From: Candidatus Heimdallarchaeota archaeon
Lineage (GTDB): Archaea > Asgardarchaeota > Heimdallarchaeia > JABLTI01
Length of the DNA stretch: 19,424 nucleotides
Assembly: GCA_030614005.1 (NCBI GenBank)
Contig: JAUWKS010000059.1
Span: forward strand, 1 to 19,424
Direction: 5' to 3'
Part shown: piece after piece, positions 5,475 through 19,001 of the stretch
Layout: each line of letters opens with the position of its first letter
Position numbering within the stretch: position 1 is the stretch's first letter
Program-made: the position numbers and the translations under genes
Notes under the pieces: generated by a model
Seen by the model: only the letters and a program-made list of their open reading frames with translations
Told to the model about the DNA's origin: nothing
Databases searched by the model: none

Positions 5475-5702
5475 ATGGTTAAATGCGTTGTTTGTCAATC
5501 GACCATCGAAAAAGGAGAATACTGCGATGCACATACTATAGCAAAAAATAATCTTGAGAAACGATTTAGCGATTGGCAAAAAGCGTATGAAAAAATGTCT
5601 TGGAAAGAATATCTCACTAGAATTAGTGATGATGCCGACATACCTGTTGGTGAGTGGGCAAAAGAAGTAGCAATCTATTTACTAGAACAAAATAAAAAAT
5701 AA
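5475..5702 (+). CDS. Small (75 aa) zinc-ribbon/knuckle protein, function unknown, translationally coupled to topA
   Basis: The ATG follows the topA TAA directly (5472-5477 taaatg), and GAGGAGGAG at 5461-5469 acts as an SD. N-terminal CVVCx9CDAH metal-binding pattern followed by a helical, W/E/K-rich tail. Confidence 0.55.
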   Translation: MVKCVVCQSTIEKGEYCDAHTIAKNNLEKRFSDWQKAYEKMSWKEYLTRISDDADIPVGEWAKEVAIYLLEQNKK

Positions 5703-5733
5703 TTTAAATATCATCAAAGGTTCGGGTTACAGT

Positions 5734-6693
5734 ATGAAGAAGACGACTCTTGGTTTTGGGCAAGTTCTATGGGATTTGACAGTTGAAGTAGATTATCCAT
5801 TTTTACAAGATGTGGATATTGAAAAAGGTGGACATAAGAGGGTTGAATACGAGGTTATTATTGATATAATCAAACGATTGGAAAAAACACCAGATACGAC
5901 GATTTTTAAAAACCCCGGAGGATGTGCGGCCAATATTATGTCCAATTTAGCTAAATTGGGTTCAAATGCGTCCTTTTGTGGTAAACATGGAGATGATGAA
6001 GATGGTTGGCAGTATATGCAAATCTTAAAAGAAGAAGGAGTAAAACCTATCAGTATTTTAGATAAAGAAAAAGCAACCGGACAACTCTTTTCCCTTATCA
6101 CACCAGATAAGGATCGAACATTTATTGTTCATTGGGGAGCTTCCGAAACTTTGCTTGCAGATTCGGTTAGTGAAAAAATTATCAGCAATGCAGATATAAG
6201 CCATCTTGAAGGGTACCTAGTAATTAACTCACAAGATGTTTTATGGAAGATTTTCGAGAATGCTCAAAAAACAACCTTCGATCTTGCAGCACATTCCGTT
6301 ATTGAACAAACATTACCCACACTCCAAAAAATGATGAAGAAGTATCCCCCATACATCTTATTTGCTAATCAATTTGAAGGAAAAGCGTTCACAAAGCTAG
6401 AAGAGCCCGAAGAGGTTCTTGATAAGATGTTGGAATTTTCTGAAAATGCAGTATTAACACTCGGGGAGAATGGAACACTCGTGAAAACAGCTTCTGGTGA
6501 AGAACATTTCCAAGAAGCAATACCGACAACTGTTATTGATACAACAGGAGCAGGAGATGCATTTATTGCCGGATTCCTTCATGAGTTTTTGAAAGATGGA
6601 GATATTCAAAAAGCAGCTAAACTTGGAACACAGGCTGCTAGCTGCACTATCAAAGAAATGGGTGCACGATCATTTCAGAAAGAGAGACTATAA
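5734..6693 (+). CDS. PfkB-family carbohydrate/nucleoside kinase (ribokinase/adenosine-kinase-like)
   Basis: 319-aa ORF. N-terminal GGCAANIMSNLAKLGSNASFCGKHGDDEDG (first PfkB signature region) and C-terminal DTTGAGDAFIAGFL (second PfkB signature with the catalytic Asp). Confidence 0.8.
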   Translation: MKKTTLGFGQVLWDLTVEVDYPFLQDVDIEKGGHKRVEYEVIIDIIKRLEKTPDTTIFKNPGGCAANIMSNLAKLGSNASFCGKHGDDEDGWQYMQILKEEGVKPISILDKEKATGQLFSLITPDKDRTFIVHWGASETLLADSVSEKIISNADISHLEGYLVINSQDVLWKIFENAQKTTFDLAAHSVIEQTLPTLQKMMKKYPPYILFANQFEGKAFTKLEEPEEVLDKMLEFSENAVLTLGENGTLVKTASGEEHFQEAIPTTVIDTTGAGDAFIAGFLHEFLKDGDIQKAAKLGTQAASCTIKEMGARSFQKERL

Positions 6694-6873
6694 CGACGAT
6701 ACAAGTTTACTTATTAATGAATCAGGTTGGGCCGAAGATGAACACTTAATCCTACTTGTTGATGTGCCTTCTACAGGAGGTAAAGCTATTCGTTATGCCA
6801 TGTATGAAGTCAAAAGCTGTACAGGTGATAATTGGTATTTCTATGAAGATAGTTCCAGCAGTGTAGATCCAGT
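6687..6873 (+). pseudogene. Orphan partial copy (about 62 codons) of the mature N-terminal region of the 7026-7715 gene; lacks start codon and signal sequence
   Basis: 187-bp direct repeat of 7126-7312 (offset 439 nt) with 9 mismatches by my alignment, about 95% identity. It reads YNDDTSLLINESGWAEDEHLILLVDVPSTGGKAIRYAMYEVKSCTGDNWYFYEDSSSSVDPV. It begins 4 nt before the kinase stop codon and is in a different frame from the kinase. Confidence 0.8.
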
Positions 6874-6963
6874 AATAAACTAACATTAATTCTCTTCTTT
6901 TTGAATAAGAATATTTACCGAGGTTGAATAAATAAATCGACAATAATTCAAAACGGAGAAATG

Positions 6964-6971
6964 TTTAAATA
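6964..6971 (+). promoter_or_regulatory. TATA box candidate (tttaaata) for the 7026 gene
   Basis: Matches the archaeal TTTAWATA consensus with a purine-rich BRE-like ggagaaa just upstream. It lies about 55 nt before the ATG at 7026, which is itself preceded by the SD-like aaaagga. Confidence 0.4.
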
Positions 6972-7025
6972 TCTTTTTGAACTGTTTTTTTTTCAAGTAA
7001 TTATTTCTCGAAAAGGAATAATTTA

Positions 7026-7715
7026 ATGGAATGTTTTAATTTGAGAGAAAAGAAAAAAACAGCTAGTTTATTAGTTATTATTTCTATATTAGGAGCAGGA
7101 TTAATCATTAATTCTTCCAACGCTTACTATAACGACGATACAAGTTTACTTATTAATGGATCAGGTTGGGCTCAAGATGAACACTTAATCCTACTTGTTG
7201 ATGTGCCTTCTACTGGAGGTAAAGCTATTCGTTATGCCATGTATGAAGTCATAACTTGTACAGGCGATAATTGGTATTTCTATGAAGATAGTTCCAGTAG
7301 TGTAGATCCAGTTTATCTTCATCTTAATTGGTATGATTATATTATTATTGTAGGTTCAGATTCAAGCAACAATGGTAATATGGATGAATTTTCTTTAACT
7401 ATGACAGTATATGACAGTGGTTCTAGTTATTCTACATACAAGTCATATAATTTTGGAGACAGTGCAGGAAATGATTTCTACGTAGGAATATGGCAGTTTC
7501 AAGATTGTGGACAATTGAAATTTGGTAATAGTGGAAAAGTTGTTGCTAAATGGGAAGATGATGGAGATCATGGTGCAACTTGGCCAGGTGTATTTACAGA
7601 TTCGGATTGGTCAGGGATATGGGGTTATTTGGACGATTATTACAATAGTGCAAATGAACATAAAATTGAAGATTTACTTGCTTATTATACATTCCCAGAT
7701 CCATATCCAAACTAA
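7026..7715 (+). CDS. Exported or N-terminally anchored protein of unknown family (D/Y/W/G/S-rich)
   Basis: 229-aa ORF. N-terminal REKKKTASLLVIISILGAGLIINSSNA is a signal peptide or signal anchor. No cytoplasmic-enzyme motifs; composition is aromatic plus acidic. Confidence 0.7.
   Translation: MECFNLREKKKTASLLVIISILGAGLIINSSNAYYNDDTSLLINGSGWAQDEHLILLVDVPSTGGKAIRYAMYEVITCTGDNWYFYEDSSSSVDPVYLHLNWYDYIIIVGSDSSNNGNMDEFSLTMTVYDSGSSYSTYKSYNFGDSAGNDFYVGIWQFQDCGQLKFGNSGKVVAKWEDDGDHGATWPGVFTDSDWSGIWGYLDDYYNSANEHKIEDLLAYYTFPDPYPN
7126..7312 (+). repeat. Expressed-gene copy of the 187-bp repeat shared with 6687-6873
   Basis: See 6687-6873. This copy starts exactly at the predicted mature N-terminus (A|YYNDD) of the 229-aa protein. 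Confidence 0.8.
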
Positions 7716-7730
7716 GGAGAAAATCTCGAA

Positions 7731-7752
7731 TTTTTTCCTTTTCTATTTTTTT
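7731..7752 (+). terminator. Oligo-T tracts after the 7026-7715 gene
   Basis: The tract ttttttccttttctattttttt lies 16 nt after the stop codon. Confidence 0.35.
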
Positions 7753-7849
7753 AAAGAGATGGATAAAATATTGAAAAATTCCGAGTTCAACAAAAAAAAT
7801 ATATGAAAAGAAAATTAATATATTTAAAGATTGAGAGGGTAATTAATTA

Positions 7850-9307
7850 ATGAAAAAATTGAAGGTTTTTATTCTAATCCTTATGATTGTGAGTTCATTT
7901 TTTATTCCATTTCATTATACCTTGTTAGCAGAAGCTGAAATGGAAGATATTAAAGAAATCATTATTACTAGTGATGAAGATATTGGTTTCTACGGGAGTA
8001 TGATCATTGATGATGAGCTTCATTTTATCTATGCCACTAATTGTAGAGATAATACAAAACTTTGTCACTATTCTATTCAAAGTGGCAAAATAAAAAAGCG
8101 TGATATTATAGATGTAGCTTTCAGTATTGGAAATGATTTTAGCTTTTCAGCTACTTCAGATCAATCATTTTATTTTACCTATAAGGTTTCAACAAAGAAT
8201 GAAACTACAGACTTATACACTCATGAATATTATTGTTATTATTTTGATGCTCTAACGAATAAAGGAGAGAAAATCCATTTATTAGATGTTACTAAATATT
8301 TTTCCCTTGATAATTCTAATCCTGATGTCTTGGGTGTAGAATTAGTAAATAATAAAACGATCTTTTTAATAGATAGCATCACATACACTCAAAGTACCAC
8401 TGATATTATAGCAATAAATCTTGAACAAAATATTGAAACTACTCATACATATATTGAATCAGGAAGATTGGAACATATTTCATCATGTTATAATACTAAT
8501 AACGATTGTGCATATTTTATTTATTATGAATGCAATTCTGATGGTAATGATTTCCGGTTATACAAGTACAATTTCACCTCTTGTTCACTAACTTTTTCTG
8601 CTAATTGCTCCTTCTCACATCTAGATTTTCTCACACGAGCAGGTAAACTTCTTTATGATCAAGTAACTGACAGTAAATATTTTATTTGCCCTTTGGATTA
8701 TGCTGGATCTGATAGTACTACAGAGTTTGCTCTATTTGAGTATAATTCAACAGCATCAACCTTTAACTTATCAAGTATAACTGATGATGCATTCGCAACT
8801 TTTTCTACGAAAACAGGAGTTGGATTTGAAACTGAAAATGAATATTATAATGCTATTATCAATAATTCATTATTATCGATTATTTATCGCAAATCCGTAG
8901 CACATTCAGACTTAAATCAATTAGCACTTATTACCTACCCCTTAGACGATAGTGAAGATTGGAATTATGTTAATCTTAATCTTGGTGATAATATCAATCC
9001 TTTCCATTCGAGGTTTATTTATGATGCCACTTCTAAAACTTATTGTGATTCATATCTTATAGGCTATATCTATGAAGATTCCCCCTATCATCCAATTGCT
9101 GCAGAGGGAAAGATTATCACTTCATTTGGGATTTATGGTCCATATGCTAATGATATCAGTAAACCTTATTTTATTAGAGCGATCAATTCAACCTATTATT
9201 GGTTAATAATAACCAGTTCAATCATTGTCCCTATTACTTTAGGAGGAGTAGGTTACTATTACCTTCGTCGTTATAAGCAAAAACAAAAAAACAAAGAAGA
9301 GAATTAA
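7850..9307 (+). CDS. Type-I single-pass membrane protein with a large beta-rich (possibly propeller-like) ectodomain, glycoprotein-like, unknown family
   Basis: N-terminal signal peptide MKKLKVFILILMIVSSFFIPF. C-terminal TM YYWLIITSSIIVPITLGGVGYYY followed by the basic tail LRRYKQKQKNKEEN. By my count, 8 N-x-S/T sequons and 10 Cys in the ectodomain. Aromatic beta-strand-like motifs recur (HFIYAT, FYFTYKV, YYCYYFD, AYFIYYE, FRLYKYN, KYFICP, FALFEYN, LSIIYRK). Confidence 0.7.
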   Translation: MKKLKVFILILMIVSSFFIPFHYTLLAEAEMEDIKEIIITSDEDIGFYGSMIIDDELHFIYATNCRDNTKLCHYSIQSGKIKKRDIIDVAFSIGNDFSFSATSDQSFYFTYKVSTKNETTDLYTHEYYCYYFDALTNKGEKIHLLDVTKYFSLDNSNPDVLGVELVNNKTIFLIDSITYTQSTTDIIAINLEQNIETTHTYIESGRLEHISSCYNTNNDCAYFIYYECNSDGNDFRLYKYNFTSCSLTFSANCSFSHLDFLTRAGKLLYDQVTDSKYFICPLDYAGSDSTTEFALFEYNSTASTFNLSSITDDAFATFSTKTGVGFETENEYYNAIINNSLLSIIYRKSVAHSDLNQLALITYPLDDSEDWNYVNLNLGDNINPFHSRFIYDATSKTYCDSYLIGYIYEDSPYHPIAAEGKIITSFGIYGPYANDISKPYFIRAINSTYYWLIITSSIIVPITLGGVGYYYLRRYKQKQKNKEEN

Positions 9308-9309
9308 TA

Positions 9310-12246
9310 ATGGTTAATCAAAAAAACACTTTTACAATTAAATCATTATTATATTGTGCTTATTCTTTTACATTTAGTGATAAAAAGCACTTAATATTCT
9401 CTATTCTAAGTTTTATGCTACCTTTTCTTCTATTTTTCCCAATACTTTTCATTGGTTTAAGTGTACAATCTTCTTTTTTGTTGGAATACCAATCTTTACA
9501 TCCATTAGAAGGGGATGAACAACATTCTGTAGATTACTATTTCTCTGATTCTTATCGTATAAATACATCTAATATTCCTTCCAATCTTTTAGCAGAAATT
9601 AATAGAGATGTTGATGATATTATTTTTAACTCAAATTTAGGTAATTATATTAATGGTTATTTATCTAATTGTGATGCTCAATTACAATATTATTCAGAAG
9701 GTGAAATTTCGCCTTCAAATATCTTATTTATCCAAAATGAATCCTTGATGCAAATCTCAAAATATTTTGAGAAAATAAATGATATTCCAGATTCATTCAA
9801 TGAATGTATATTAGTACAAAAAACTGATTTATCTGAATATACTAACTTTGAATATTCATACTCAATCGGAGATAATATTTCTATTTTACCTTTTGCTCAT
9901 GAAGAATCTGAATTGATTGTTAATAATACGTTCATTATTGATCCTTTGAATGTTAGTGTTACAAATATTTTCAATACAAACGATTTCCTACTTGAAGGTG
10001 TTATTAAAGAGGAAGATCTCTTCCTTTTTAATATCCTAAATTATTATTGTTATTTTATATCTGATCAACCTTTACTATTACTTTCTATAGATTATTTGAC
10101 TGCTTTCTTTCATTCCTTCCCGAAGCTTTTATCATCAGAGATTCACATTAATATTCAATTTCTCTATGATTTCTCTTCATTTAAAATAACTGATTTGAAA
10201 GAAGTTTATGATTCAGCAGAGGATTTACCCAATTTATCCGGTTTTTCATATTATCATGATCTTTCCGCCAATGTCACTCCTGAATTAGCAGACTTCATGG
10301 TTCTCTTTAAAAGAGATATTCAACAGCAATGGTTCCGTCTTTTTGCTATTGGGTTAGCATCCTTAGTATTTTCCTTGTTTATTCTTTGGCTTAGTTTTTC
10401 ATCTAATACTCTCAAGCTATCAGACATTTACGCTAATTTCATAACTCGTGGTTTCCCTCGTAGTACTATTCTCAAGATATTCACTATTTCTCGTTTTATA
10501 GAAATTAGTTTTTCTTGTTTTTTAGCGCTTATTTTGGCTGTTCCATTAACATATTTGAACCTTGGAATTATTTCAGGTATAACAAAGGCAGGTTCTCTCA
10601 CACTAAATCTGATCTCTTTTAGAGCAGTATTTGTCCCTTCATTATTGTTCTATGTAATCTTGTTTGCCTTTTCATTTGGTAATTTAGTAATTCTTGTCAG
10701 AAAAGTAGAAAAATTCTTTCCGAATCGTCTTAGTTCTTTCACAGCTGTTACTATTGGTTCAACCAAAACTCAAATGTTAATAAGTGGATTATCCGGTTTG
10801 TTCTCTCTTTTGGGTATGTCATCATTATTAATTATTAAGAACTTTTTAAATTTACAAGATATCTTAGATTCTGAAATATTATTTATTTTTGATATCTTCT
10901 TGTACATTTTCATCTCAATAGCAATTTTCTGTTTACTCTTTATTTTAATCAATTCATTATTGAAACAGATAGTTAAGTTATCCCATTCTCTCTGGAAAAA
11001 AACGTCAAAAAAATTCTCGATTATCTTACATAATCTTTCTCTTGCTTTTCAACATCACAAAAAACAGTCCTTTTTCATTGCTCTTTCGTTTCTAATCTTT
11101 ATTCAATCATTTTTAATTCCAGCTTATTTATCACAACATGCCACTTATTCTGCAAAATTTGATCTGGGTTCTGATGTATCTATTCATTTAGAAAATCCTT
11201 CCAATACTGCATCTTTACTTTCAGATATTTCACTTATTCCTTCTGTTTATTCAGCTGCAAATTATTCTCTTATCCAGTTATCGATTTTTGACATAGATTA
11301 TCAAGTATTGGTTATTTCGCAAACCTTTGGATCTACAGTATCCTATTCCAGAGATTATAATCTGAGAATTACAAAAGACGACTTAGAGGAATTCAGCGAT
11401 GCTCCGAATTCCATTCTCACTCAATCAGAAGACATATTTCTTAATAGTAGGATTGTTTATGGTTCAGAAAGTAACAGCATTATTTTAGGTTTTAACAACA
11501 TTTCAGCTGATGGTGAGCAATTCATTGAAGAGGAGTTTAAGGTTTATGACAAATATAATCTTTTTCCAATACTATTAAATGACTATCAACTTTCGTCATT
11601 TCATTTTGAAAAAAATGCTATTCCTTTTCTAGTCATGACAGAATCAGCTTTCCAGACAATTCATCAGTATAATGAAGATATTTCTATTATTTCACTAGAA
11701 GAAGCTGTTATCGTTAAACTCAAAAAACAATCAGAAATGCAAGCATTTTTACTAGCATTACAATCAACACCTTATTCAATTGTTCATACAACTTGGATGG
11801 ATGTTTATCCAGATTACTTGCCATCTTTTGCTACTAGTATCATAGCATTATCCATTGTAACAGGTATTTTTGCAGCTATTTCATTTTTCATTGTAGGAAT
11901 TGTTTTAGTACAAGATATGATCAATGCTCAACGAGAGAAGATACTTGTCTTGCGTTATCGAGGATTTTCAATTAAGACTATTTCAAGAAATTTCCTTGTT
12001 GAGTACTTGTTTGTTTTACTTTTAATTATTCCAATAAGCATAGGTGCAGGGATTGGATCTCTTGTTTTTCTTCTAAGAGTTCTAATTAAAGCTGAAAATT
12101 GGATTCTGAACGTTCCTTATTATGGTCAGTTTTCACTTTATTTGGCAATCATATTATTGGGTTTATTAGGGGTAGACATCCTCATTAGACATTTTTATCA
12201 GAAGAAATTCTTTGAGTTTCAACCATCAATTATGGAGGGTACATGA
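9310..12246 (+). CDS. ABC transporter permease, tandem FtsX/MacB-type (about 10 TM, 4+2+4) with two large extracytoplasmic domains
   Basis: 978-aa ORF starting 2 nt after the previous stop. The C-terminal module carries the canonical FtsX loop motif QREKILVLRYRGFSIKTISRNFLVEYL (about aa 875-900) between TM helices. The N-terminal module has a degenerate counterpart, YANFITRGFPRSTILKIF (about aa 373-390). The non-hydrophobic stretches of about 285 aa and about 235 aa after TM1 and TM7 fit MacB-like periplasmic domains. Confidence 0.75.
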   Translation: MVNQKNTFTIKSLLYCAYSFTFSDKKHLIFSILSFMLPFLLFFPILFIGLSVQSSFLLEYQSLHPLEGDEQHSVDYYFSDSYRINTSNIPSNLLAEINRDVDDIIFNSNLGNYINGYLSNCDAQLQYYSEGEISPSNILFIQNESLMQISKYFEKINDIPDSFNECILVQKTDLSEYTNFEYSYSIGDNISILPFAHEESELIVNNTFIIDPLNVSVTNIFNTNDFLLEGVIKEEDLFLFNILNYYCYFISDQPLLLLSIDYLTAFFHSFPKLLSSEIHINIQFLYDFSSFKITDLKEVYDSAEDLPNLSGFSYYHDLSANVTPELADFMVLFKRDIQQQWFRLFAIGLASLVFSLFILWLSFSSNTLKLSDIYANFITRGFPRSTILKIFTISRFIEISFSCFLALILAVPLTYLNLGIISGITKAGSLTLNLISFRAVFVPSLLFYVILFAFSFGNLVILVRKVEKFFPNRLSSFTAVTIGSTKTQMLISGLSGLFSLLGMSSLLIIKNFLNLQDILDSEILFIFDIFLYIFISIAIFCLLFILINSLLKQIVKLSHSLWKKTSKKFSIILHNLSLAFQHHKKQSFFIALSFLIFIQSFLIPAYLSQHATYSAKFDLGSDVSIHLENPSNTASLLSDISLIPSVYSAANYSLIQLSIFDIDYQVLVISQTFGSTVSYSRDYNLRITKDDLEEFSDAPNSILTQSEDIFLNSRIVYGSESNSIILGFNNISADGEQFIEEEFKVYDKYNLFPILLNDYQLSSFHFEKNAIPFLVMTESAFQTIHQYNEDISIISLEEAVIVKLKKQSEMQAFLLALQSTPYSIVHTTWMDVYPDYLPSFATSIIALSIVTGIFAAISFFIVGIVLVQDMINAQREKILVLRYRGFSIKTISRNFLVEYLFVLLLIIPISIGAGIGSLVFLLRVLIKAENWILNVPYYGQFSLYLAIILLGLLGVDILIRHFYQKKFFEFQPSIMEGT

Positions 12247-13937
12247 TGATTAATCTTGAGGCAATAACTAAAATCTATCCTAATCCTGAACTAGGTCGTT
12301 CCATTGTAGCTTTAGGTGGTTGTGATTTAGATATCAAGAGTGGTAGTTTTGTTTCAATAATTGGCCCTAGTGGTGCTGGGAAATCTACTCTTATGAGAAT
12401 GATCTGTGGTTTAGAACAACCAACGAGTGGTAAAGTGAATATTTTATCGCAAGACATTGATTTAATGTCAAAGAAAGAATTATATGATTTCCGTTTGCAG
12501 AATATTGGATTTCTTAATCAAATACCACACTATAATCTCTTTCCGGAACTTACTGTTGAACGGAATTTAATGGTACCAACTAGGCTTTTAGGTAAGAGCT
12601 TAGAAGAATCAAAAAAACAAGTTGATGAAATGCTAGAGAAAATGGAAATCAAACATCTCGCTCTCAGAAGAGCAAAACAACTTTCAATGGGAGAAAGTAT
12701 GCGAGTTGGTTTAGCAATTTCTCTCATCAACTCTCCTCCAATACTATTAGCTGATGAGCCTACTGGTCAACTCGATAAAAAGAACACAAAAATCATCTTG
12801 GATCTACTTAGAAAAATAAATCAAGAGGAAAAAACTACCATTGTTGTTGTCAGCCATGACTCTAACTACTTTTCAGTGGTCTCTGAATCTTTTCTTATTT
12901 TCAATGGAAGATTAGGAGCTATTTATGCTCAAGAAGATTTTCCAGAGGAAAGTGAAGGTGAGGATAAACCTATTACTTCTGAGACTTTTGTTTCTCATAT
13001 TGATAGTTATTCTTACTTATTCCTACCAAACCAAATCAAAGAACTTTTATCATTAAACAAGAAAGTCAAATTTGTTGTAAATCACGAATCAAAGAAGATC
13101 TATCTTGAGAACCCCGAATCACCGGAAAGCTTTTCAGGAAAAGAAATTTCCCAACAGGTGGAAATTCCACGATATCAACCAAGAAAACGAGACAAAAAAG
13201 AGAGGAGTATTTTAGAATGCACAGATTTGACAAAATTCTATTATTCACCCAGAAAAGAACTTATCTTACAGAACTTAAATCTACAAATATATCCTGGAGA
13301 ATTAGTGTTTCTAATTGGTCCATCTGGCACAGGGAAAACAACATTATTGAATCTTGTATCAGGGATTGATAGGGATTTTACTGGTTCAATAAGAATTCTA
13401 GATAAAGAAATCCTCTCATCTAATTTTACAGCAATTGATAAACTGCGATCCCAATCAGTCTACTACTCCTCACAATATATCAACCTCTATCCCTCTATGA
13501 CCCTAATCGAAAACATAAATTATTTTATCGCAAATAAAAAAAGTGAACAGAGTTTTTATGATACAGAGTATCTATTGCAACATCTCTCGTTGGATAATAT
13601 TAAAAATCAGTTAGTAGAAAACTATTCACAAGGAGAAAAGAAAAGAGCAACAATACTTCTGGGATTATTATTATCACCGAGAATTATGCTTATTGATGAG
13701 CCTACTGCCAACTTGGATGAATTGAACAAGCGCAAAATAATCAGTCTTTTTGTAGAGTATGTTATGGGTACTAATGCTTCAGTTCTTGCAGTGACACATG
13801 ATTTACTCTCAATAGTTTCAAATAGCAGGATTCTTGAAATTGAGGATAATAAGATAAGCAGGGATATGATAGCAACAACAGAGTTCTGCAATAAATTGAA
13901 AGAACAATACCTTAGTAAGAAGGATGTTAAGGATTAA
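12243..13937 (+). CDS. ABC transporter ATPase with two fused nucleotide-binding domains (LolD/MacB/FtsE-like) joined by a linker of about 100 aa
   Basis: ATGA overlap with the permease stop; GGAGGG SD at 12235-12240. NBD1: Walker A GPSGAGKST (aa 41-49), Q-loop FLNQ, signature LSMGE (147-151), Walker B ILLADEPT, H-loop VSHD. NBD2: Walker A GPSGTGKTT (aa 359-367), signature YSQGE (461-465), Walker B IMLIDEPT, H-loop VTHD. Confidence 0.85.
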   Translation: MMINLEAITKIYPNPELGRSIVALGGCDLDIKSGSFVSIIGPSGAGKSTLMRMICGLEQPTSGKVNILSQDIDLMSKKELYDFRLQNIGFLNQIPHYNLFPELTVERNLMVPTRLLGKSLEESKKQVDEMLEKMEIKHLALRRAKQLSMGESMRVGLAISLINSPPILLADEPTGQLDKKNTKIILDLLRKINQEEKTTIVVVSHDSNYFSVVSESFLIFNGRLGAIYAQEDFPEESEGEDKPITSETFVSHIDSYSYLFLPNQIKELLSLNKKVKFVVNHESKKIYLENPESPESFSGKEISQQVEIPRYQPRKRDKKERSILECTDLTKFYYSPRKELILQNLNLQIYPGELVFLIGPSGTGKTTLLNLVSGIDRDFTGSIRILDKEILSSNFTAIDKLRSQSVYYSSQYINLYPSMTLIENINYFIANKKSEQSFYDTEYLLQHLSLDNIKNQLVENYSQGEKKRATILLGLLLSPRIMLIDEPTANLDELNKRKIISLFVEYVMGTNASVLAVTHDLLSIVSNSRILEIEDNKISRDMIATTEFCNKLKEQYLSKKDVKD

Positions 13938-14001: not shown

Positions 14002-14078
14002 TGGTGGACCGGATGGAATTTGAATCCACAGCCTTCTGAATGCGAATCAGACGATCTACCAGGTTGATCTACCGGCCC
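14002..14078 (-). tRNA. tRNA-Ala (anticodon CGC) with genomically encoded 3' CCA
   Basis: The reverse complement folds as a cloverleaf: GGGCCGG-TA-GATC-AACCTGGTA-GATC-G-TCTGA-TTCGCAT-TCAGA-AGGCT-GTGGA-TTCAAAT-TCCAT-CCGGTCC-A-CCA. Stems are 7/4/5/5 bp. The G3:U70 wobble (alanine identity element) is present, and the anticodon loop TT-CGC-AT is clear. Confidence 0.9.
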
Positions 14079-14266
14079 AAATGAATATAATATGACTTGA
14101 AATCTTCTCTCTTTTGAATTTTTTCTTTTGATAGCTTTATCTAATGTTTGACAAGGACATAAATCATTTAAGCATTGCCCGTCATTTATCTACTATTAAT
14201 ATTGAACATTCGGTTAGAAATTACAGTGTTTCATCTATAACTGAAACATTGGAGTGGAGTAATAAG

Positions 14267-17200
14267 ATGTCTAAAAAAGAAGCAAAGGCTCTCAATTTAC
14301 TGCCTCGTTTATCTGCAAATGAAAAACGAGTTTTCCAAGCTTTGGTAAAGAATGGTGCTTTGACACCGATAGAAATTTCACAACGAGGTGGAGGTTCTAA
14401 AGGAAGAGTTGCCACGGCTTTAGAAACGATGGTTGAACGAGGGTTTGCTGTACCCGTGGGAAACGATGATGATCGTCGCTATATTGCGGTATTCCCTGTA
14501 ATGAAATTCACTGCTGTTTTAAGTATTTTAACTCGTTCTCTTGACGCACGCAAAAGCGAATTGGAAGCAACAACTGAAGTTGTCCACAATTTCACTGAAG
14601 GGGCAATTAAGAATGTACGAGAAGCAAGTTCGGAGGAACGTGAGAAACGAACTGAACGTTCCGAGGAAGATATTAAAGACCTCGAAATGGCTATGGATGC
14701 TTCTTTTAGTGGAATCCTTGCATCTATTGAAATGGATTTGAAAGATTTAAACCGAATATCAAAGACATCTAATGAATTTCTCGTAGAATCTTCAATCCGC
14801 ACAAAGGAAACAACGGATAACATTGAACGAGGATTAAAACCTTTAGCAAAAAATTTCTCAAAAATTCTAACTGCCGCATATGACAATGTAGAAGGTCAAC
14901 TTGAAGCTACTGTTGATGCACGAGTGAGTGACATCATTGATTTTGAAACTAAAGCCAATTCAGCATTTGATGCAGTCTTAGAAGCTTTCAATACTTCAAA
15001 GGATGAATTTGAGGACATTATTTTCACGGTACTTGATTCTGGTATTGATGATTTAGAGAGAGTTACTCGACCAATTAATGAGCAAATTGATGAAGCAATA
15101 AGCTCACTAACAGAAGCAATTGAAGAATCATCATTAAACTTCCAAACAGAGATGGTTCGTGTCTTGACTGAACAAAAACGACCAATGGTCACTGCAGTTG
15201 ATTCCATACAACCACGATTTGCTAAAGTTACTAATGCTGCTTTGGATGAGCATAAGGTAGTTATAGAACAGCAAAAACAATCTCTCTCAGGTTTAATGGA
15301 AAATCATTTTTCGATATTTAGTAAAGCCGCTGTAGAGCTGGCAAGTGATTTTGACAAAAAAATAGACATCTTAATTGAACAGTCTCTCGAAAACACTTCT
15401 TCTGCAAGTGATGAGATGAATGCTATCGAAGATGCATTTGTTAATTCGATTGAAAAAATAACAAATGAGAAAAACAAATTTATTCACAATACTTCAGAAC
15501 GGTCTCGAGATGTTCTTAACGAAATGATAGAACAATTCCTCATTATTCTGAATGGTGCTGTTGCAGAATATCAAATGGATCTCAGTGATATAATCGCAAA
15601 ACTTGAAGCTGACTTTCTAAATACTGTGGATAATAATGGTGTAAGTGTACAAAACCTCGTTAATTTCATCAATATGACCTTAACTGAACCTGTTAAGGAA
15701 CTTATGATTAACTTGGAAAAATTAAATGAACGCATCATTAAAGATGAGACAGCTTTTCTAACTAAATTTGACCAACGATTGCAGAATGAATTACAAGATA
15801 TTAATAAACAATTCAAAAAAGACACGATAAAGAAGGAAGAAAACTTTGAGAAAGATCTCAATCGTCTAAAAGAACGAATCGATAAGGATTTTTCATCAAA
15901 TCTCGATGCTCTCCAAAATAAGCTAGTAGAACAAGATAGAGCTTTCCAATCACTTTACAAAGAATTTTCCGCTAAACACCAGAAAGGATTAAGAGATACT
16001 TCAAAAGAAGTTTCCTCTTTAACTAAAAAACTTGAACGATGGAGAGGCGAAAGCACTAAAACAATTCAAGATAGAATTGAATCGAAGGTTGATAAGAACC
16101 TCGAAATATTAGAGAGTAAGATGGATAATCTAGTAGACCAAATAAAAAATAACGGTCAAGTTTCAAAAGAGGAATTAATTATACTTATTCGTGATTCATA
16201 CACACAAATTTCTAAAAATTTCAGAAGTTTTGGAGCTGAAACAAATACTAGCACCAGACGATCTCTTCAAGAAATAGCCAATATTCTCAAAAAAGATAGT
16301 CTATCAATTAACAATAGACTTGTTTCCTTTAAGAAAGAACAAGATAAATTAATTGAAGAAACAAAGTTTCCAGTTTCCAAATTACTAGTTGAACTTGGCA
16401 CTGAGTATAAGCAATTCTATAAGAAGACTGACAATAATCTTAATCGATTCTTTTCTAATGACATTGAAACCTTTAAACGTACTAGAAAAGAACTAAGCAA
16501 ATCTATCGATAGTATACTTAATCGTCAAGGCTCTCGAACTACTAAAGATAGTATAACACTGAAAGATAGTTTCATACGCGCACGAGAGAAATATGTTTCC
16601 AAAACGCAAGAGAGCTTCGAAAAAGTAGAGAAAACAATTGCTCGGGATGCATCTTCATTATTAGATCAAGAACGATCTTCTCGCTCAACTATAACAGATC
16701 TAACTGAAAAAACAATTAGTGAATTATCAAATGGTGTTAATTCAACTGCACAAACAATCCGATCCAATATTACTTCTGGAGCAGAGAGAATATTTAGGCA
16801 AGCAGCGGCTGAACTCAGTAAACAAGAAATTGAGCTTGGAGAATTAAACGAAAAACAACAAGATGAATCCATCGACATGTATAATGAAATTAACAAAATG
16901 CACAGGCAGCAACTCAAAATCCTAGATAAGAAAATCGATGCATTGCAAGAAAAACAAATAGGAAATGCCTTTGAATTTAGAGATCACTATACTCAATCAT
17001 TGAAAGAGGATTTAATAAAACAACAGGAAATCTTGAGTAATTCAAAAGAAATTATTTTCGAGCAATGTGAAAAATTGGCCGGCGATTTACAAGAGCAAAC
17101 CTCGTCAATAACTAACAGAACCATTCTGGAGCTAGAAGCCAAAACTTCTGGAATAGAAGGAGCAATATTTAGTACTGTAGGTAATATTACTGCGGAATCT

Positions 17201-17857
17201 TCTAGAAGAACAGAGGGTGTTGCGGTTATAGGTGAGCAAGCAGTTTTAGGTATTGAAGAACGATATACTGAAAACCTTGAACGAATTCGTCAGAAATTAA
17301 CTGATCAAGTAATTTCTCGTATTGAGAGAGAGGCTGCAAATATTGAGAAATACAAAGGTGGATTGCATCAAATAGGACGAGAACATCTTGCTTTATATGG
17401 CAAAACAATGAGTGATCTCAATGACAACTTGAAGAAAGATATGGAAAAAGTAGAGAAAGCATCGATGAAAACAATTACAGCCTGCGAAACTAAATCTAAC
17501 AGATTTTTAGAAGGTTTAGATATAGAGATCACTGCCATGGGTGAAAGGGTTAGTTTGAGTACAGATCGATTAATTTCTGATTTATTAGATGGTTTTGATC
17601 GAGTACTTCAGAAAGTTAAACGAGAAGCAACACTCTTTGCTCGAAAGCAGTTTGAGCTTTCAAATAGAAGTAACATGGAAATTGCTGAAGCTTTTCTCAA
17701 ATCGGTAGATGATTTAGAAGAAGTAATGCTAAAACAAATTTCCAGTTTTGCTAAGAGGACTATTATATCAATTGATAAAACAAATGATTTATCCGCAGTC
17801 ATTAATGACCATGTTAAAAATATGACTGGAGCATTCAAAGAATTGTCTGAGAATTAG
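14267..17857 (+). CDS. Giant (about 1196 aa) protein: N-terminal TrmB/MarR-like winged helix-turn-helix followed by more than 1000 aa of alpha-helical/coiled-coil sequence; unknown family
   Basis: ATG 14267 is preceded by GGAGTGGAG (14251-14259). The N-terminus LNLLPRLSANEKRVFQALVKNGALTPIEISQRGGGSKGRVATALETMVERGFAVPVGNDDDRRYIAVFPV fits the TrmB-type wHTH pattern. The remainder is E/K/D/S/L/I-rich with only 6 Pro and 2 Cys by my count, none of the Pro in the last ~500 aa. There is no TM segment and no Walker A. The ORF-track start at 14144 is an alternative. Confidence 0.75.
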   Translation: MSKKEAKALNLLPRLSANEKRVFQALVKNGALTPIEISQRGGGSKGRVATALETMVERGFAVPVGNDDDRRYIAVFPVMKFTAVLSILTRSLDARKSELEATTEVVHNFTEGAIKNVREASSEEREKRTERSEEDIKDLEMAMDASFSGILASIEMDLKDLNRISKTSNEFLVESSIRTKETTDNIERGLKPLAKNFSKILTAAYDNVEGQLEATVDARVSDIIDFETKANSAFDAVLEAFNTSKDEFEDIIFTVLDSGIDDLERVTRPINEQIDEAISSLTEAIEESSLNFQTEMVRVLTEQKRPMVTAVDSIQPRFAKVTNAALDEHKVVIEQQKQSLSGLMENHFSIFSKAAVELASDFDKKIDILIEQSLENTSSASDEMNAIEDAFVNSIEKITNEKNKFIHNTSERSRDVLNEMIEQFLIILNGAVAEYQMDLSDIIAKLEADFLNTVDNNGVSVQNLVNFINMTLTEPVKELMINLEKLNERIIKDETAFLTKFDQRLQNELQDINKQFKKDTIKKEENFEKDLNRLKERIDKDFSSNLDALQNKLVEQDRAFQSLYKEFSAKHQKGLRDTSKEVSSLTKKLERWRGESTKTIQDRIESKVDKNLEILESKMDNLVDQIKNNGQVSKEELIILIRDSYTQISKNFRSFGAETNTSTRRSLQEIANILKKDSLSINNRLVSFKKEQDKLIEETKFPVSKLLVELGTEYKQFYKKTDNNLNRFFSNDIETFKRTRKELSKSIDSILNRQGSRTTKDSITLKDSFIRAREKYVSKTQESFEKVEKTIARDASSLLDQERSSRSTITDLTEKTISELSNGVNSTAQTIRSNITSGAERIFRQAAAELSKQEIELGELNEKQQDESIDMYNEINKMHRQQLKILDKKIDALQEKQIGNAFEFRDHYTQSLKEDLIKQQEILSNSKEIIFEQCEKLAGDLQEQTSSITNRTILELEAKTSGIEGAIFSTVGNITAESSRRTEGVAVIGEQAVLGIEERYTENLERIRQKLTDQVISRIEREAANIEKYKGGLHQIGREHLALYGKTMSDLNDNLKKDMEKVEKASMKTITACETKSNRFLEGLDIEITAMGERVSLSTDRLISDLLDGFDRVLQKVKREATLFARKQFELSNRSNMEIAEAFLKSVDDLEEVMLKQISSFAKRTIISIDKTNDLSAVINDHVKNMTGAFKELSEN

Positions 17858-17924: not shown

Positions 17925-19001
17925 GTGAATTTATTTCAGATTACTTTGTTGGATCAAGAGGAACATCCAGAACCTAATAGAGATTTGTCATCTAAACCGT
18001 TACAGATCGAAGCAGATAAGAAACAAATTCCCAAACATGTTTTCTTTCTTATAGCTTTGGCAGTTGTTATGACCTCTTTTGCTTCTATACTAATTCGCTA
18101 TGCGGGTATAGACATTGTTAGGATAGATGTAAATCTTGTACCGGCAGATGCATCAGTAATTGCTTTTTGGCGACTGCTTTTTGCTACCATAGGAATGTTT
18201 CTGGGGGCAGTTTTTACCCGAAATTTGAAGGAATTCAAAAAAGTAGAGTTAAAGAAAGATATGCCACTGTTAACTTTATCGGGACTTGCTTTAGCAATTC
18301 ATTTTGCAACCTGGAATCTTTCTTTGCAAATGACAAATGTGGCAAGTTCAATTACAATTGTGTATTTAATGCCTTTATTTGCACTCCTTCTGTCTGTAAT
18401 TTTCCTCAAAGATAAAGTATCTTGGAAACAAGCCCTTGTTGTCGTTCTGACCGTTGTAGGAGCTATTACTGTAGGATTATCTGATTTAATAACAGAAGGA
18501 CTAGGCAATCTTTACGGAGATTTATTTGCACTAGCAGGAGGAATTTCGGGCGCAGTTTATTTTGTTATCGGGAGAAAGAAAAGAGAGAGATTGGACATAT
18601 TCTCGTATGCAACAATTGTTTATGGTATTTGTACAATTTTCCTTCTAATATATGTACTATCGAATCCTGTAACAAGACCGCTTATCGTCTCAGGTCTCAG
18701 CTGGCACCATTTCCTTTTCTTTATACTGCTTGCTTTAGGACCTTCGTGTTTAGGTCACACTTTATACAATTACGGTCTAGGTTTTGTTAGAGCACCAGTA
18801 ATTGCTGTTACTTCTTTAGGTGAAATATTTGGTGCAACATTATTAGCTATACTGTTCTTCCTCGAAATCCCACATTGGTCTGCATTAATTGGTATGGCTT
18901 TTGTTGCAGCTGGTATTGTAGTTACAGTTATTTTAGAGAATAAATCTTCAAAAGAACATGCAAACAAACAAAAGAATCCATCTGAATTTGCTCAAAAATA
19001 A
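17925..19001 (+). CDS. EamA/DMT-superfamily transporter (about 10 TM)
   Basis: 358-aa ORF with two tandem 5-TM halves. Typical EamA features are present (FASILIRYA..., AFWRLLFA, ...HFATWNLSLQMTNVASSITIVYLMPLFALLLSVIFLKDK; second half GDLFALAGGISGAVYFVIGRK...LGEIFGATLLAILFFLE). GTG start; the first in-frame ATG lies inside TM1, so the true start is upstream of it. Confidence 0.8.
   Translation: MNLFQITLLDQEEHPEPNRDLSSKPLQIEADKKQIPKHVFFLIALAVVMTSFASILIRYAGIDIVRIDVNLVPADASVIAFWRLLFATIGMFLGAVFTRNLKEFKKVELKKDMPLLTLSGLALAIHFATWNLSLQMTNVASSITIVYLMPLFALLLSVIFLKDKVSWKQALVVVLTVVGAITVGLSDLITEGLGNLYGDLFALAGGISGAVYFVIGRKKRERLDIFSYATIVYGICTIFLLIYVLSNPVTRPLIVSGLSWHHFLFFILLALGPSCLGHTLYNYGLGFVRAPVIAVTSLGEIFGATLLAILFFLEIPHWSALIGMAFVAAGIVVTVILENKSSKEHANKQKNPSEFAQK

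Follow-up and report, generated by a model that had tools for sequence, protein, structure and literature searches.

A TrmB-type winged-helix head on a hendecad rod of about 1,120 residues, probably folded back as an antiparallel coiled coil, in a Heimdallarchaeota protein

Results

The rod-protein gene and its product

The 19,424-nucleotide stretch of contig JAUWKS010000059.1 analysed here (hereafter the window) comes from a Candidatus Heimdallarchaeota archaeon (assembly GCA_030614005.1). Among pfkB, tRNA-Ala, EamA and TyrRS-type genes, it carries on the forward strand a complete gene for a protein that joins an N-terminal winged helix-turn-helix (wHTH) domain to a very long helical rod (Table 1). 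An earlier note on this DNA, made from the letters of the sequence, had proposed such a fusion and had called it a candidate DNA-anchored structural or scaffold protein. We find that the structure of the protein, meaning its head, its helicity and the hendecad fold-back of its rod, is well supported by profile, periodicity, conservation and modelling data.

Table 1. Features of the rod-protein gene and its surroundings in the window (aa, amino acid residue; AF2, AlphaFold2; N and C strand, the two predicted strands of the rod).
Feature	Positions	Strand	Remarks
tRNA-Ala(CGC)	14002-14078	-	follows the low-GC block at 7026-13937
Inverted repeat TGTTTCA-N8-TGAAACA	14227..14248	+	perfect; 19 nt 5' of the rod-gene ATG
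Shine-Dalgarno-like motif GGAGTGGAG	14251..14259	+	read from the sequence; 7 nt 5' of the ATG
Rod-protein coding sequence	14267..17857	+	complete, 1196 aa plus stop; TrmB-type wHTH head and probable hendecad fold-back rod
wHTH DNA-binding head (TrmB family), aa 1-77	14267..14497	+	net basic; Pfam, family profile against PDB, AF2, Foldseek
Predicted outgoing (N) strand, aa 78-628	14498..16150	+	AF2 helices 78-259, 278-312, 314-471 and 474-627; register constant from about aa 170
Base module, aa 78-168	14498..14770	+	conserved, directly after the wHTH; pairs with aa ~1097-1187
N-side joint, aa 241-300	14987..15166	+	column identity 0.79-0.88; helix break at 260-277
Predicted apex loop, aa 629-634 (NGQVSK)	16151..16168	+	loop in both AF2 models; mirror centre i+j ~1265
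Predicted returning (C) strand, aa 635-1196	16169..17854	+	AF2 helices 634-699 and 702-1195; block identity matches the N strand
C-side joint, aa 961-1020	17147..17326	+	column identity 0.82-0.88; opposite the N-side joint (1265-269=996)
EamA-family transporter gene	17925..19001	+	Pfam EamA 4.7e-28; directly downstream on the same strand in every orthologue locus down to 28% identity

A winged-helix head of the TrmB family

The N-terminus passes the Pfam threshold for TrmB (PF01978, 27.0 bits against a gathering score of 25.6) over residues 15-64, while the peptide quoted as a wHTH in the earlier note comprises residues 15-62. The same family is precomputed on 26 of the 35 clusters of homologues described below, and a profile of the rod-protein family, when compared with the PDB, retrieves TrmBL2 (5bpd, E=3.4e-4, matched over residues 14-99) and TrmB (3qph, E=6e-4). 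In the AF2 model the head consists of helices at 17-29, 34-41 and 45-57 and strands at 61-64 and 71-74, after which helix extends from residue 78 to the C-terminus. Foldseek relates this head to the winged helices of MarR, IclR, ArsR, Z-alpha and TrmBL2 with a probability of 1.0. The head has a net charge of +4 to +5 and contains four prolines.

The TrmB/MarR-type domain recognised in the earlier note is thus borne out by the Pfam score, the predicted topology and the Foldseek matches, and so is its statement that no ligand-binding domain follows, as about 1,120 residues that are helical almost throughout stand there instead. No C-terminal effector or sugar-binding domain was found, the AF2 model being helical to the last residue, and Pfam matched nothing outside the head and the rod; the window protein has no match to PF11495. 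NCBIfam models and a phmmer search against the PDB also gave no matches to it.

An unbroken 11-residue periodicity

The rod is rich in E, L, K, S and I. Six prolines had been counted in the protein, whereas it has ten, the four of the head adding to six in the 1,119 residues of the rod (192, 269, 306, 316, 475 and 702). The other compositional statements of the note were accurate: proline is absent from the last ~500 residues (none beyond 702), there are two cysteines (934 and 1073), and no transmembrane-like segment was seen (maximum 19-residue Kyte-Doolittle value 1.44), nor a hydrophobic N-terminus. The protein sequence contains no Walker A motif, which agrees with the view that it is not an SMC/Rad50-like ATPase, and it has no Pfam match to SMC_N, AAA or MCPsignal. 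Tandem Repeats Finder, again in accordance with the note, reported no nucleotide-level tandem repeats apart from trivial rows of at most two copies.

What the note had missed is the main feature of the rod, for which it recognised no family. The spectrum of the family's hydrophobicity profile shows one peak only, at 3.66 residues (11/3), and its power of 81.8 compares with 2.7 at the heptad value of 3.5. For the window protein by itself the power at 11/3 is 99, whereas 300 shuffled sequences average 4.6 and never exceed 9.2. The phase of this signal is -160 +/- 20 degrees in all 44-residue windows from residue 169 to residue 1137, and about 93 consecutive hendecads follow one another without a stutter between residues ~170 and 1196. 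When the rod is arranged in rows of 11, LIVMFWY residues occupy 62-68% of each of three columns and 36% and 29% of two flanking ones. This three-plus-two arrangement is the classical a-d-e-h core of a hendecad coiled coil, and K/R residues peak at register positions 7 and 0, off the hydrophobic seam. Large hydrophobic residues make up about 30% of the rod, which we read as the share expected of a two-stranded seam. The a-d-e-h pattern and sustained 11/3 periodicity place the rod in the right-handed (hendecad) class of coiled coils, an assignment by sequence pattern, from which handedness itself is not read.

No recognisable sequence repeats accompany this periodicity, as hhalign comparisons among 110-residue segments of the rod gave probabilities of at most 57%. 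The regularity resides only in the hydrophobic pattern. In an alignment of 27 sequences reaching down to 27% identity, which served for the analysis of conservation and indels, indels occur at just four sites (13, 66/67, 630 and 877).

Evidence that the rod folds back

Smoothed conservation in this alignment is mirror-symmetric. The conservation of residue i correlates with that of residue S-i at r=0.84 for S=1265 (547 pairs; centre near residue 632), while other mirror centres average 0.03 with a standard deviation of 0.28 and the runner-up peak is 0.46. Paired blocks of 33 residues accordingly have near-equal column identities, for example 0.87/0.89, 0.47/0.44 and 0.74/0.74. The confidence score (predicted local distance difference test, pLDDT) of the full-length AF2 model is likewise mirror-symmetric around residue ~630 (r=0.91). 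Mutual information with average-product correction, when averaged along antidiagonals, is highest overall at S=1263 (z=4.4); the best 13 values all fall at S=1257-1269. Hydrophobic core-to-core matching gives maxima at S=1263 and S=1267, half a turn either side of 1265, as expected of interdigitating knobs-into-holes packing.

The earlier note had suggested that AlphaFold and Foldseek be applied to segments of the rod, and this yielded a helical hairpin. For residues 480-785, modelled with a 16-sequence alignment, AF2 predicts helices at 481-628 and 635-784 with a 6-residue loop between them (mean pLDDT 85.3). The best Foldseek match of this model is the Thermotoga chemoreceptor 2CH7 (305 aligned columns, probability 0.98), and others are the Bacillus SMC arm 5NNV, Rad50 and the MukB elbow, all of them long antiparallel hairpins; 7ZR1 and 6H2X are also listed among the SMC/Rad50/MukB arms. 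These matches represent analogy and not homology, because all have E values of at least 0.037. A Foldseek search with the full-length model was set aside, as it matched only the head, and its alignments of the rod with MukB had an rmsd of ~100 Å and were meaningless.

From the mirrored conservation, pLDDT and covariation together with the AF2 hairpin, we conclude that the rod probably folds back into an antiparallel coiled coil of ~82 nm (each strand of about 553 residues, with a rise of 0.148 nm per residue). Its C-terminus would then be back at the head, since residue i faces residue ~1265-i and residue 1196 thus pairs with residue ~69. The straight rod or filament of more than 1,000 residues envisaged in the earlier note is therefore most likely not formed.

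Landmarks along the rod

The apex is the least conserved part of the rod. Identity at the tip is 0.44-0.54, the lowest in the protein, and the sequence there is polar, variable and rich in Gly and Asn, and is the sole site of indels in mid-rod. No hinge domain, CxxC zinc hook or cysteine is present at this 6-residue apex. At the opposite end, the base module departs from the common register, with a phase of +94 to +126 degrees over residues 81-168 compared with -160 degrees elsewhere, a shift of ~100 degrees. Its column identity is 0.67-0.83, that of its counterpart on the C strand is 0.65-0.87, and it is a candidate dimerisation region.

The most conserved parts of the rod are two facing regions, the joints, which lie about 190 residues (~28 nm) from the head. 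The N-side joint carries the near-invariant motif (D/E)IIFxVLDSGIxDLEKVTRPINEQIEEAI at 250-280, which is kept in the 27%-identical homologue P0035, and AF2 predicts a loop with pLDDT <50 at 260-277. The C-side joint carries RRTEGVxVIGEQAVLGIEERYTENLERIRQ at 980-1009, also near-invariant and present in the 27% homologue; it has Gly residues at an 11-residue spacing (962, 984 and 995), and pLDDT is <50 at 979-1001. Further paired irregular regions occur at 121-140/1123-1142, 461-480/783-802 and 553-572/691-710. The family-mean net charge of the rod is -46, with only the apex-proximal third near neutral.

Start codon and 5' leader

The open reading frame (ORF) is uninterrupted from 14144 to 17857 on the forward strand, and the ATG at 14267 lies within it, giving the 1,196-residue translation. 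We take this ATG as the start because orthologues of 1195-1200 residues share the N-terminus that it defines, and nearly all begin there. The longer ORF from the ATG at 14144 (1237 residues) was rejected, as its 41 added residues are missing in almost all orthologues. Some gene callers use the upstream ATG (proteins P0001 and P0004), and the 14144-14266 extension is probably an over-called start. A purine-rich GAG/GGA block stands in the upstream regions of orthologues at a position equivalent to that of the Shine-Dalgarno-like motif.

Both arms of the inverted repeat are preserved, and its spacer is changed, in the closest relative (89%, L013). In the alignment of upstream regions the repeat was not seen in orthologues of at most 56% identity, and no operator is conserved past the closest relative. 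The repeat might tentatively be regarded as a candidate operator or leader hairpin, placed in the 5' leader or promoter. A sigma-70 promoter and terminator scan gave results at shuffle expectation, under a model not applicable to archaea.

Distribution among Heimdallarchaeota

A word-indexed search of ~5.8 billion proteins gave 35 homologue clusters with identities from 99% down to 28%, nearly all of them full-length (~1196-1200 residues). All relatives have an unbroken gene of conserved length; a broken ORF in related genomes, which the earlier note had named as evidence against its reading, was not seen. The source names of the clusters are Heimdallarchaeota or "Asgard group" metagenome-assembled genomes (MAGs). 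When GTDB species genomes were scanned, 10 loci came to light, each in a Heimdallarchaeota MAG, one of these MAGs being labelled Bathyarchaeia.

Gene order is constant down to the 28% orthologue: Ldh_2, topoisomerase IA, a small ORF, PfkB, (GNAT), the rod gene, the EamA transporter and a Tyr/Trp-tRNA synthetase. The rod gene always lies between pfkB and the EamA gene in these loci, and the EamA gene is possibly co-transcribed with it. Such constancy indicates a vertically inherited, housekeeping-type, chromosomal locus within one archaeal clade. No phage genes were found at this conserved cellular locus.

Relatives in other Asgard lineages

A HMMER search with the family profile over 1.84 billion representatives returned 515 matches at E<=1e-3. 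Among the best 150 listed, 130 are long (>=600 residues), and 46 of these, all outside the orthologue group, combine a matching N-terminal wHTH with a shared C-terminal globular domain of ~140 residues (alignment A2). These proteins come from Odin-, Baldr-, Frey-, Loki/Promethe-, Hod- and Heimdall-archaeal MAGs. The distant relatives have strong 11/3 periodicity, and their rods pass the threshold of the Pfam Apolipoprotein family (PF01442) with 93.8-133 bits. One large group has a fixed length of ~1293-1309 residues at 13-16% identity. Its default MAFFT alignment was too gappy at this identity to be usable; an alignment with stiffer gap penalties gave a mirror peak of r=0.71 (z ~2), which is suggestive only and sits where a hairpin would return the C-domain to the head.

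The window protein lacks this C-domain (hhalign probability 0.1%). Against the PDB the domain has weak matches only, the best being a FAM83B chain (E=0.032), which we take to be PLD-like; the domain is left unassigned. The overall picture suggested by these comparisons is a TrmB plan of head, helix and C-domain in which the connecting helix has grown into a giant hairpin and from which the Heimdall orthologues have lost the C-domain. Further matches of the family profile include insect perilipin-4 and a bacterial protein described as "apoA-IV repeat-like". Like the ZorA tails considered below, these are 11-periodic helices, and we read all such matches as reflecting a shared periodic design and not ancestry or function.

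Some of the relatives have conspicuous neighbours. A homologous Cys-rich protein of ~280 residues is encoded directly upstream of the rod gene at 7132-7995 of locus L007 (Baldrarchaeia) and at 7137-7952 of locus L010 (26% identity, E=3e-15). In Freyarchaeota (L011) an unrelated-looking 770-residue ORF (5687-7999) lies 1 nt upstream, and Arf-like GTPases and a STAND NTPase are also present. The Cys-rich protein and the L011 neighbours are possible partners, and none of them adjoins the rod gene of the window. In three Asgard lineages the gene immediately after the rod gene encodes a membrane transporter, namely EamA in Heimdall (17925-19001), ArsB/CitMHS in Baldr (L007, 11724-13022) and MFS in Frey (L011, 13659-14834). 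This adjacency could be a coincidence or a hint of a membrane link.

Other features of the window

Upstream of the rod gene, the GNAT position of orthologous loci is filled in the window by a block of ~7 kb with low GC content (7026-13937, GC 0.27-0.32). Its products are a secreted protein of 229 residues, a 485-residue protein with signal and transmembrane segments, a 978-residue FtsX-like permease and a double ABC ATPase. The block looks inserted beside the tRNA gene, because orthologous loci carry only the GNAT acetyltransferase gene there. A 187-nt direct repeat with 95% identity occurs at 6687-6873 and 7126-7312; the first copy, just after the pfkB stop codon, duplicates the 5' part of the gene for the 229-residue secreted protein. 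The duplicated part gives rise to a 95-residue ORF (6596-6883) with the same peptide as the secreted protein. This repeat may mark the edge of the inserted block.

At the left end of the window, a pyruvate/2-oxoacid:ferredoxin oxidoreductase gene that encodes 640 residues in orthologous loci keeps only its C-terminal 163 residues within positions 1-826. The remnant, at 335-826, enters the TPP_enzyme_C profile at position 80, and the 334 nt before it hold, in another frame, an ORF (23-322) without a Pfam match. The oxidoreductase gene may thus be disrupted or rearranged here.

Discussion

Comparison with known systems

TrmB heads, hendecad coiled coils and fold-back arms are each known, but their combination, scale and regularity in one protein are not described. 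A related plan is that of TrmB and TrmBL2, in which an N-terminal PF01978 wHTH is also directly continued by an amphipathic helix, and whose three-part plan recurs in the distant Asgard relatives with their globular C-terminal domain. However, the dimerisation helix of these regulators has ~30 residues in place of ~1,120 hendecad residues, and the window protein has no effector domain. In Sulfolobus, Sso10a forms a winged-helix dimer joined by an antiparallel coiled-coil rod that bridges or stiffens DNA (PMC4941522). It shares with the window protein a winged-helix head on an antiparallel coiled coil, and an architectural, nucleoid-associated role has been proposed for it; in contrast, Sso10a is a ~10 kDa protein with a two-chain rod of a few nanometres, whereas the rod described here is ~82 nm long and probably intramolecular. 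Sso10a is absent among the PDB matches of the family profile at E<=1, and the resemblance is architectural only.

The arms of SMC, Rad50 and MukB are similarly very long and antiparallel, with termini joined at the DNA-binding end and with conserved paired discontinuities at "joints" or "elbows". The mirror, covariation and AF2 data agree with an arm of this type, and equally allow intermolecular pairing. Unlike these proteins, the window protein has no ABC ATPase head, hinge or zinc hook, is hendecad and not mainly heptad, and has a longer arm (~553 residues per strand). Methyl-accepting chemotaxis proteins (MCPs) also form long two-helix antiparallel hairpins of strictly conserved length with mirror-symmetric conservation, but they are heptad-based and membrane-anchored and their tip is most conserved, whereas the window protein is hendecad and soluble and its tip is least conserved; PF00015 (MCPsignal) has no Pfam match in it. 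KfrA has a globular N-terminal DNA-binding head and a long coiled-coil tail (PMC7821693); it differs in being plasmid-borne, ~300-350 residues long and without a fold-back hendecad hairpin on a wHTH. The right-handed coiled-coil tail of ZorA is ~70 nm long and its length matters (PMC11946911), but ZorA is a pentameric membrane motor with transmembrane domains and no fold-back hendecad hairpin on a wHTH.

Exchangeable apolipoproteins and perilipin-4 share an unbroken 11-residue periodicity over hundreds of residues, and the best PDB match of the family profile is ApoA-IV (E=5.8e-9), with weak matches to apolipophorin-III and ApoA-I. The apolipoprotein part of the "spectrin/apolipoprotein-like" bundles proposed in the earlier note has an echo in PF01442, although at 28.9 bits the window protein stays below the gathering score of 90. 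It also differs from apolipoproteins in that it is not secreted, has neither Pro-punctuated 22-mers nor a class-A charge pattern, is strongly acidic, has position-specific conservation and carries a DNA-binding head. We found no paper describing the rod-protein family, in a literature search whose coverage was incomplete and whose outcome is absence of evidence only. The claim that this is not a described archaeal class nonetheless goes too far, as small-scale precedents for a DNA-binding head on a coiled-coil rod exist in Sso10a, KfrA and the TrmB/TrmBL2 dimerisation helix, and a wider Asgard superfamily shares this head and rod.

A possible DNA-anchored scaffold and its alternatives

Our preferred reading, which we hold about as firmly as we doubt it, is that the protein is a DNA-anchored architectural scaffold or tether on a fold-back rod and not a ligand-switched regulator. 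From the family of the head, the helicity, the periodicity, the length conservation and the mirror symmetry, we infer that the protein may bind DNA, may dimerise and may have an architectural role. By analogy with other TrmB/MarR proteins, the basic head (residues 1-77) would bind DNA, and the head and base module would dimerise. The helix would run out for ~553 residues, turn at residues 629-634 and return antiparallel, forming a nearly straight two-helix rod. This acidic rod could extend outward from the nucleoid, serving as a docking arm or rigid spacer; the near-invariant paired joint might be a partner site or a hinge. The roles named in the earlier note (tether, ruler, scaffold) are candidates on the same footing.

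Several observations weigh against this reading. Mirror symmetry and covariation fit an intramolecular hairpin and an extended antiparallel homodimer alike, and the hairpin is favoured only by the loop-like apex and the monomer AF2 model. The covariation signal is modest (27 sequences) and possibly inflated in part by mirrored entropy, and confidence in the full-length AF2 model is low (pLDDT 68.7; predicted template modelling score 0.26). A static hairpin needs no continuity of hendecad phase across the apex and the joints, and such continuity is how apolipoprotein-type helices, which open on lipid, are built. Moreover, the genomic context offers no chromatin-related partner among the neighbours of the rod gene.

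The homodimer would in effect be a giant Sso10a, in which two fully extended chains arranged head-to-tail, with residue i of one opposite residue ~1265-i of the other, form a rod of ~165 nm with a wHTH at each end, bridging two DNA segments at a fixed distance. We consider this unlikely, even though it predicts the same symmetry and covariation as the hairpin, the hendecad phase runs on through the centre, and ApoA-IV-type helices domain-swap in this manner. Exactly such a winged-helix dimer on an antiparallel rod exists in Sso10a (PMC4941522). However, the poorly conserved, indel-bearing centre of symmetry resembles a loop and not a coiled-coil dyad, and AF2 places a high-confidence 6-residue loop there, though a monomer run cannot model the alternative. 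A different departure from the static hairpin is a soluble form that opens on lipid into a continuous 11/3 amphipathic helix; the protein would then tether DNA to a membrane, or be sequestered there as a sensor of the membrane's state. The ApoA-IV match, the scores of up to 133 bits among relatives, the retrieval of perilipin-4 and a bacterial apoA-IV-like protein, the register unbroken across loops and the transporter gene downstream in three lineages would all suit such a protein. Yet any 11-periodic helix would give such matches, and the window protein itself is far from the Apolipoprotein threshold. It has no proline punctuation, its K/R residues lie off the polar/non-polar interface, and a rod charge of about -46 disfavours attachment to anionic archaeal membranes. 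The mirrored, position-specific conservation and the near-invariant joints furthermore argue for specific folded pairing and not for a generic lipid coat, and we regard the lipid-binding explanation as improbable.

The head would also suit a conventional TrmB-family regulator, probably autoregulatory, whose coiled coil senses temperature or ions as in TlpA or forms filaments as in KfrA. A palindrome near the start of its own gene, with arms kept in the closest relative, is consistent with this, and in KfrA proteins autoregulation likewise goes together with a head that binds DNA and a long coiled-coil tail (PMC7821693, PMC7783346). Nevertheless, a sensor needs far less than this rod, which is indel-free over more than 1,100 residues and has conserved joints. 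The palindrome is confined to close relatives, no effector domain is present, and the locus is chromosomal and not on a plasmid; we thus think the regulator reading quite improbable. Hardly credible, finally, is a known long coiled-coil system with missed parts, such as SMC/Rad50, an MCP, a tape measure or a ZorA-type tail. Its support consists of the Foldseek matches of the apex model to a chemoreceptor, SMC, Rad50 and MukB, a PADLOC match to ZorA (E=3.6e-13) that covers tail positions of the profile only, and a match to the tape-measure family phrog_167 at only E=3e-4. The Foldseek matches are weak, as noted above, the period is 11/3 and not heptad, the tip is least conserved, opposite to MCPs, and the Walker A motif, SMC_N, MCPsignal, transmembrane segments and phage genes are all missing. 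We rejected the defence-system and phage readings, as these matches are driven by periodicity and the locus is of the housekeeping type. Membership in the SMC, MCP, tape-measure and ZorA families is likewise refuted, since the defining features of each were looked for and not found; the statement in the earlier note that the protein is not SMC/Rad50-like was correct, and none of the families that it named as possible counter-evidence (MCP, SMC, phage tape measure) applies.

A broader form of the scaffold reading would make the window protein the Heimdall branch of an Asgard-wide set of DNA-anchored rods, each with a TrmB head and a length-fixed hendecad fold-back arm of 50-130 nm. Such rods would hold the chromosome at a distance from, or tie it to, the membrane, the cytoskeleton or other DNA, with the joint docking a partner. 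This extension is speculative and, in our estimation, has a small chance of being correct.

Implications

If the predicted structure holds, the rod ranks in length and regularity near the top of the intramolecular coiled coils predicted for prokaryotes, with about 93 unbroken hendecads and a length of ~82 nm that is constant over more than 70% sequence divergence, set on a DNA-binding head defined by its family. Antiparallel coiled coils of the right-handed (11/3) type, as well as length-measuring rods, would have in it a natural test case. The current labels of these proteins, "helix-turn-helix domain-containing", "sugar-specific regulator TrmB" and "apolipoprotein", are all misleading. The protein is a testable Asgard candidate for the organisation of the nucleoid or for its linkage to other structures, and relatives with head and rod are present in Loki-, Odin-, Baldr-, Frey-, Hod- and Heimdall-archaea. 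Should an Asgard-wide class of such rods prove true, it would represent a prokaryotic counterpart of rod-shaped chromatin tethers and rulers in the closest archaeal relatives of eukaryotes.

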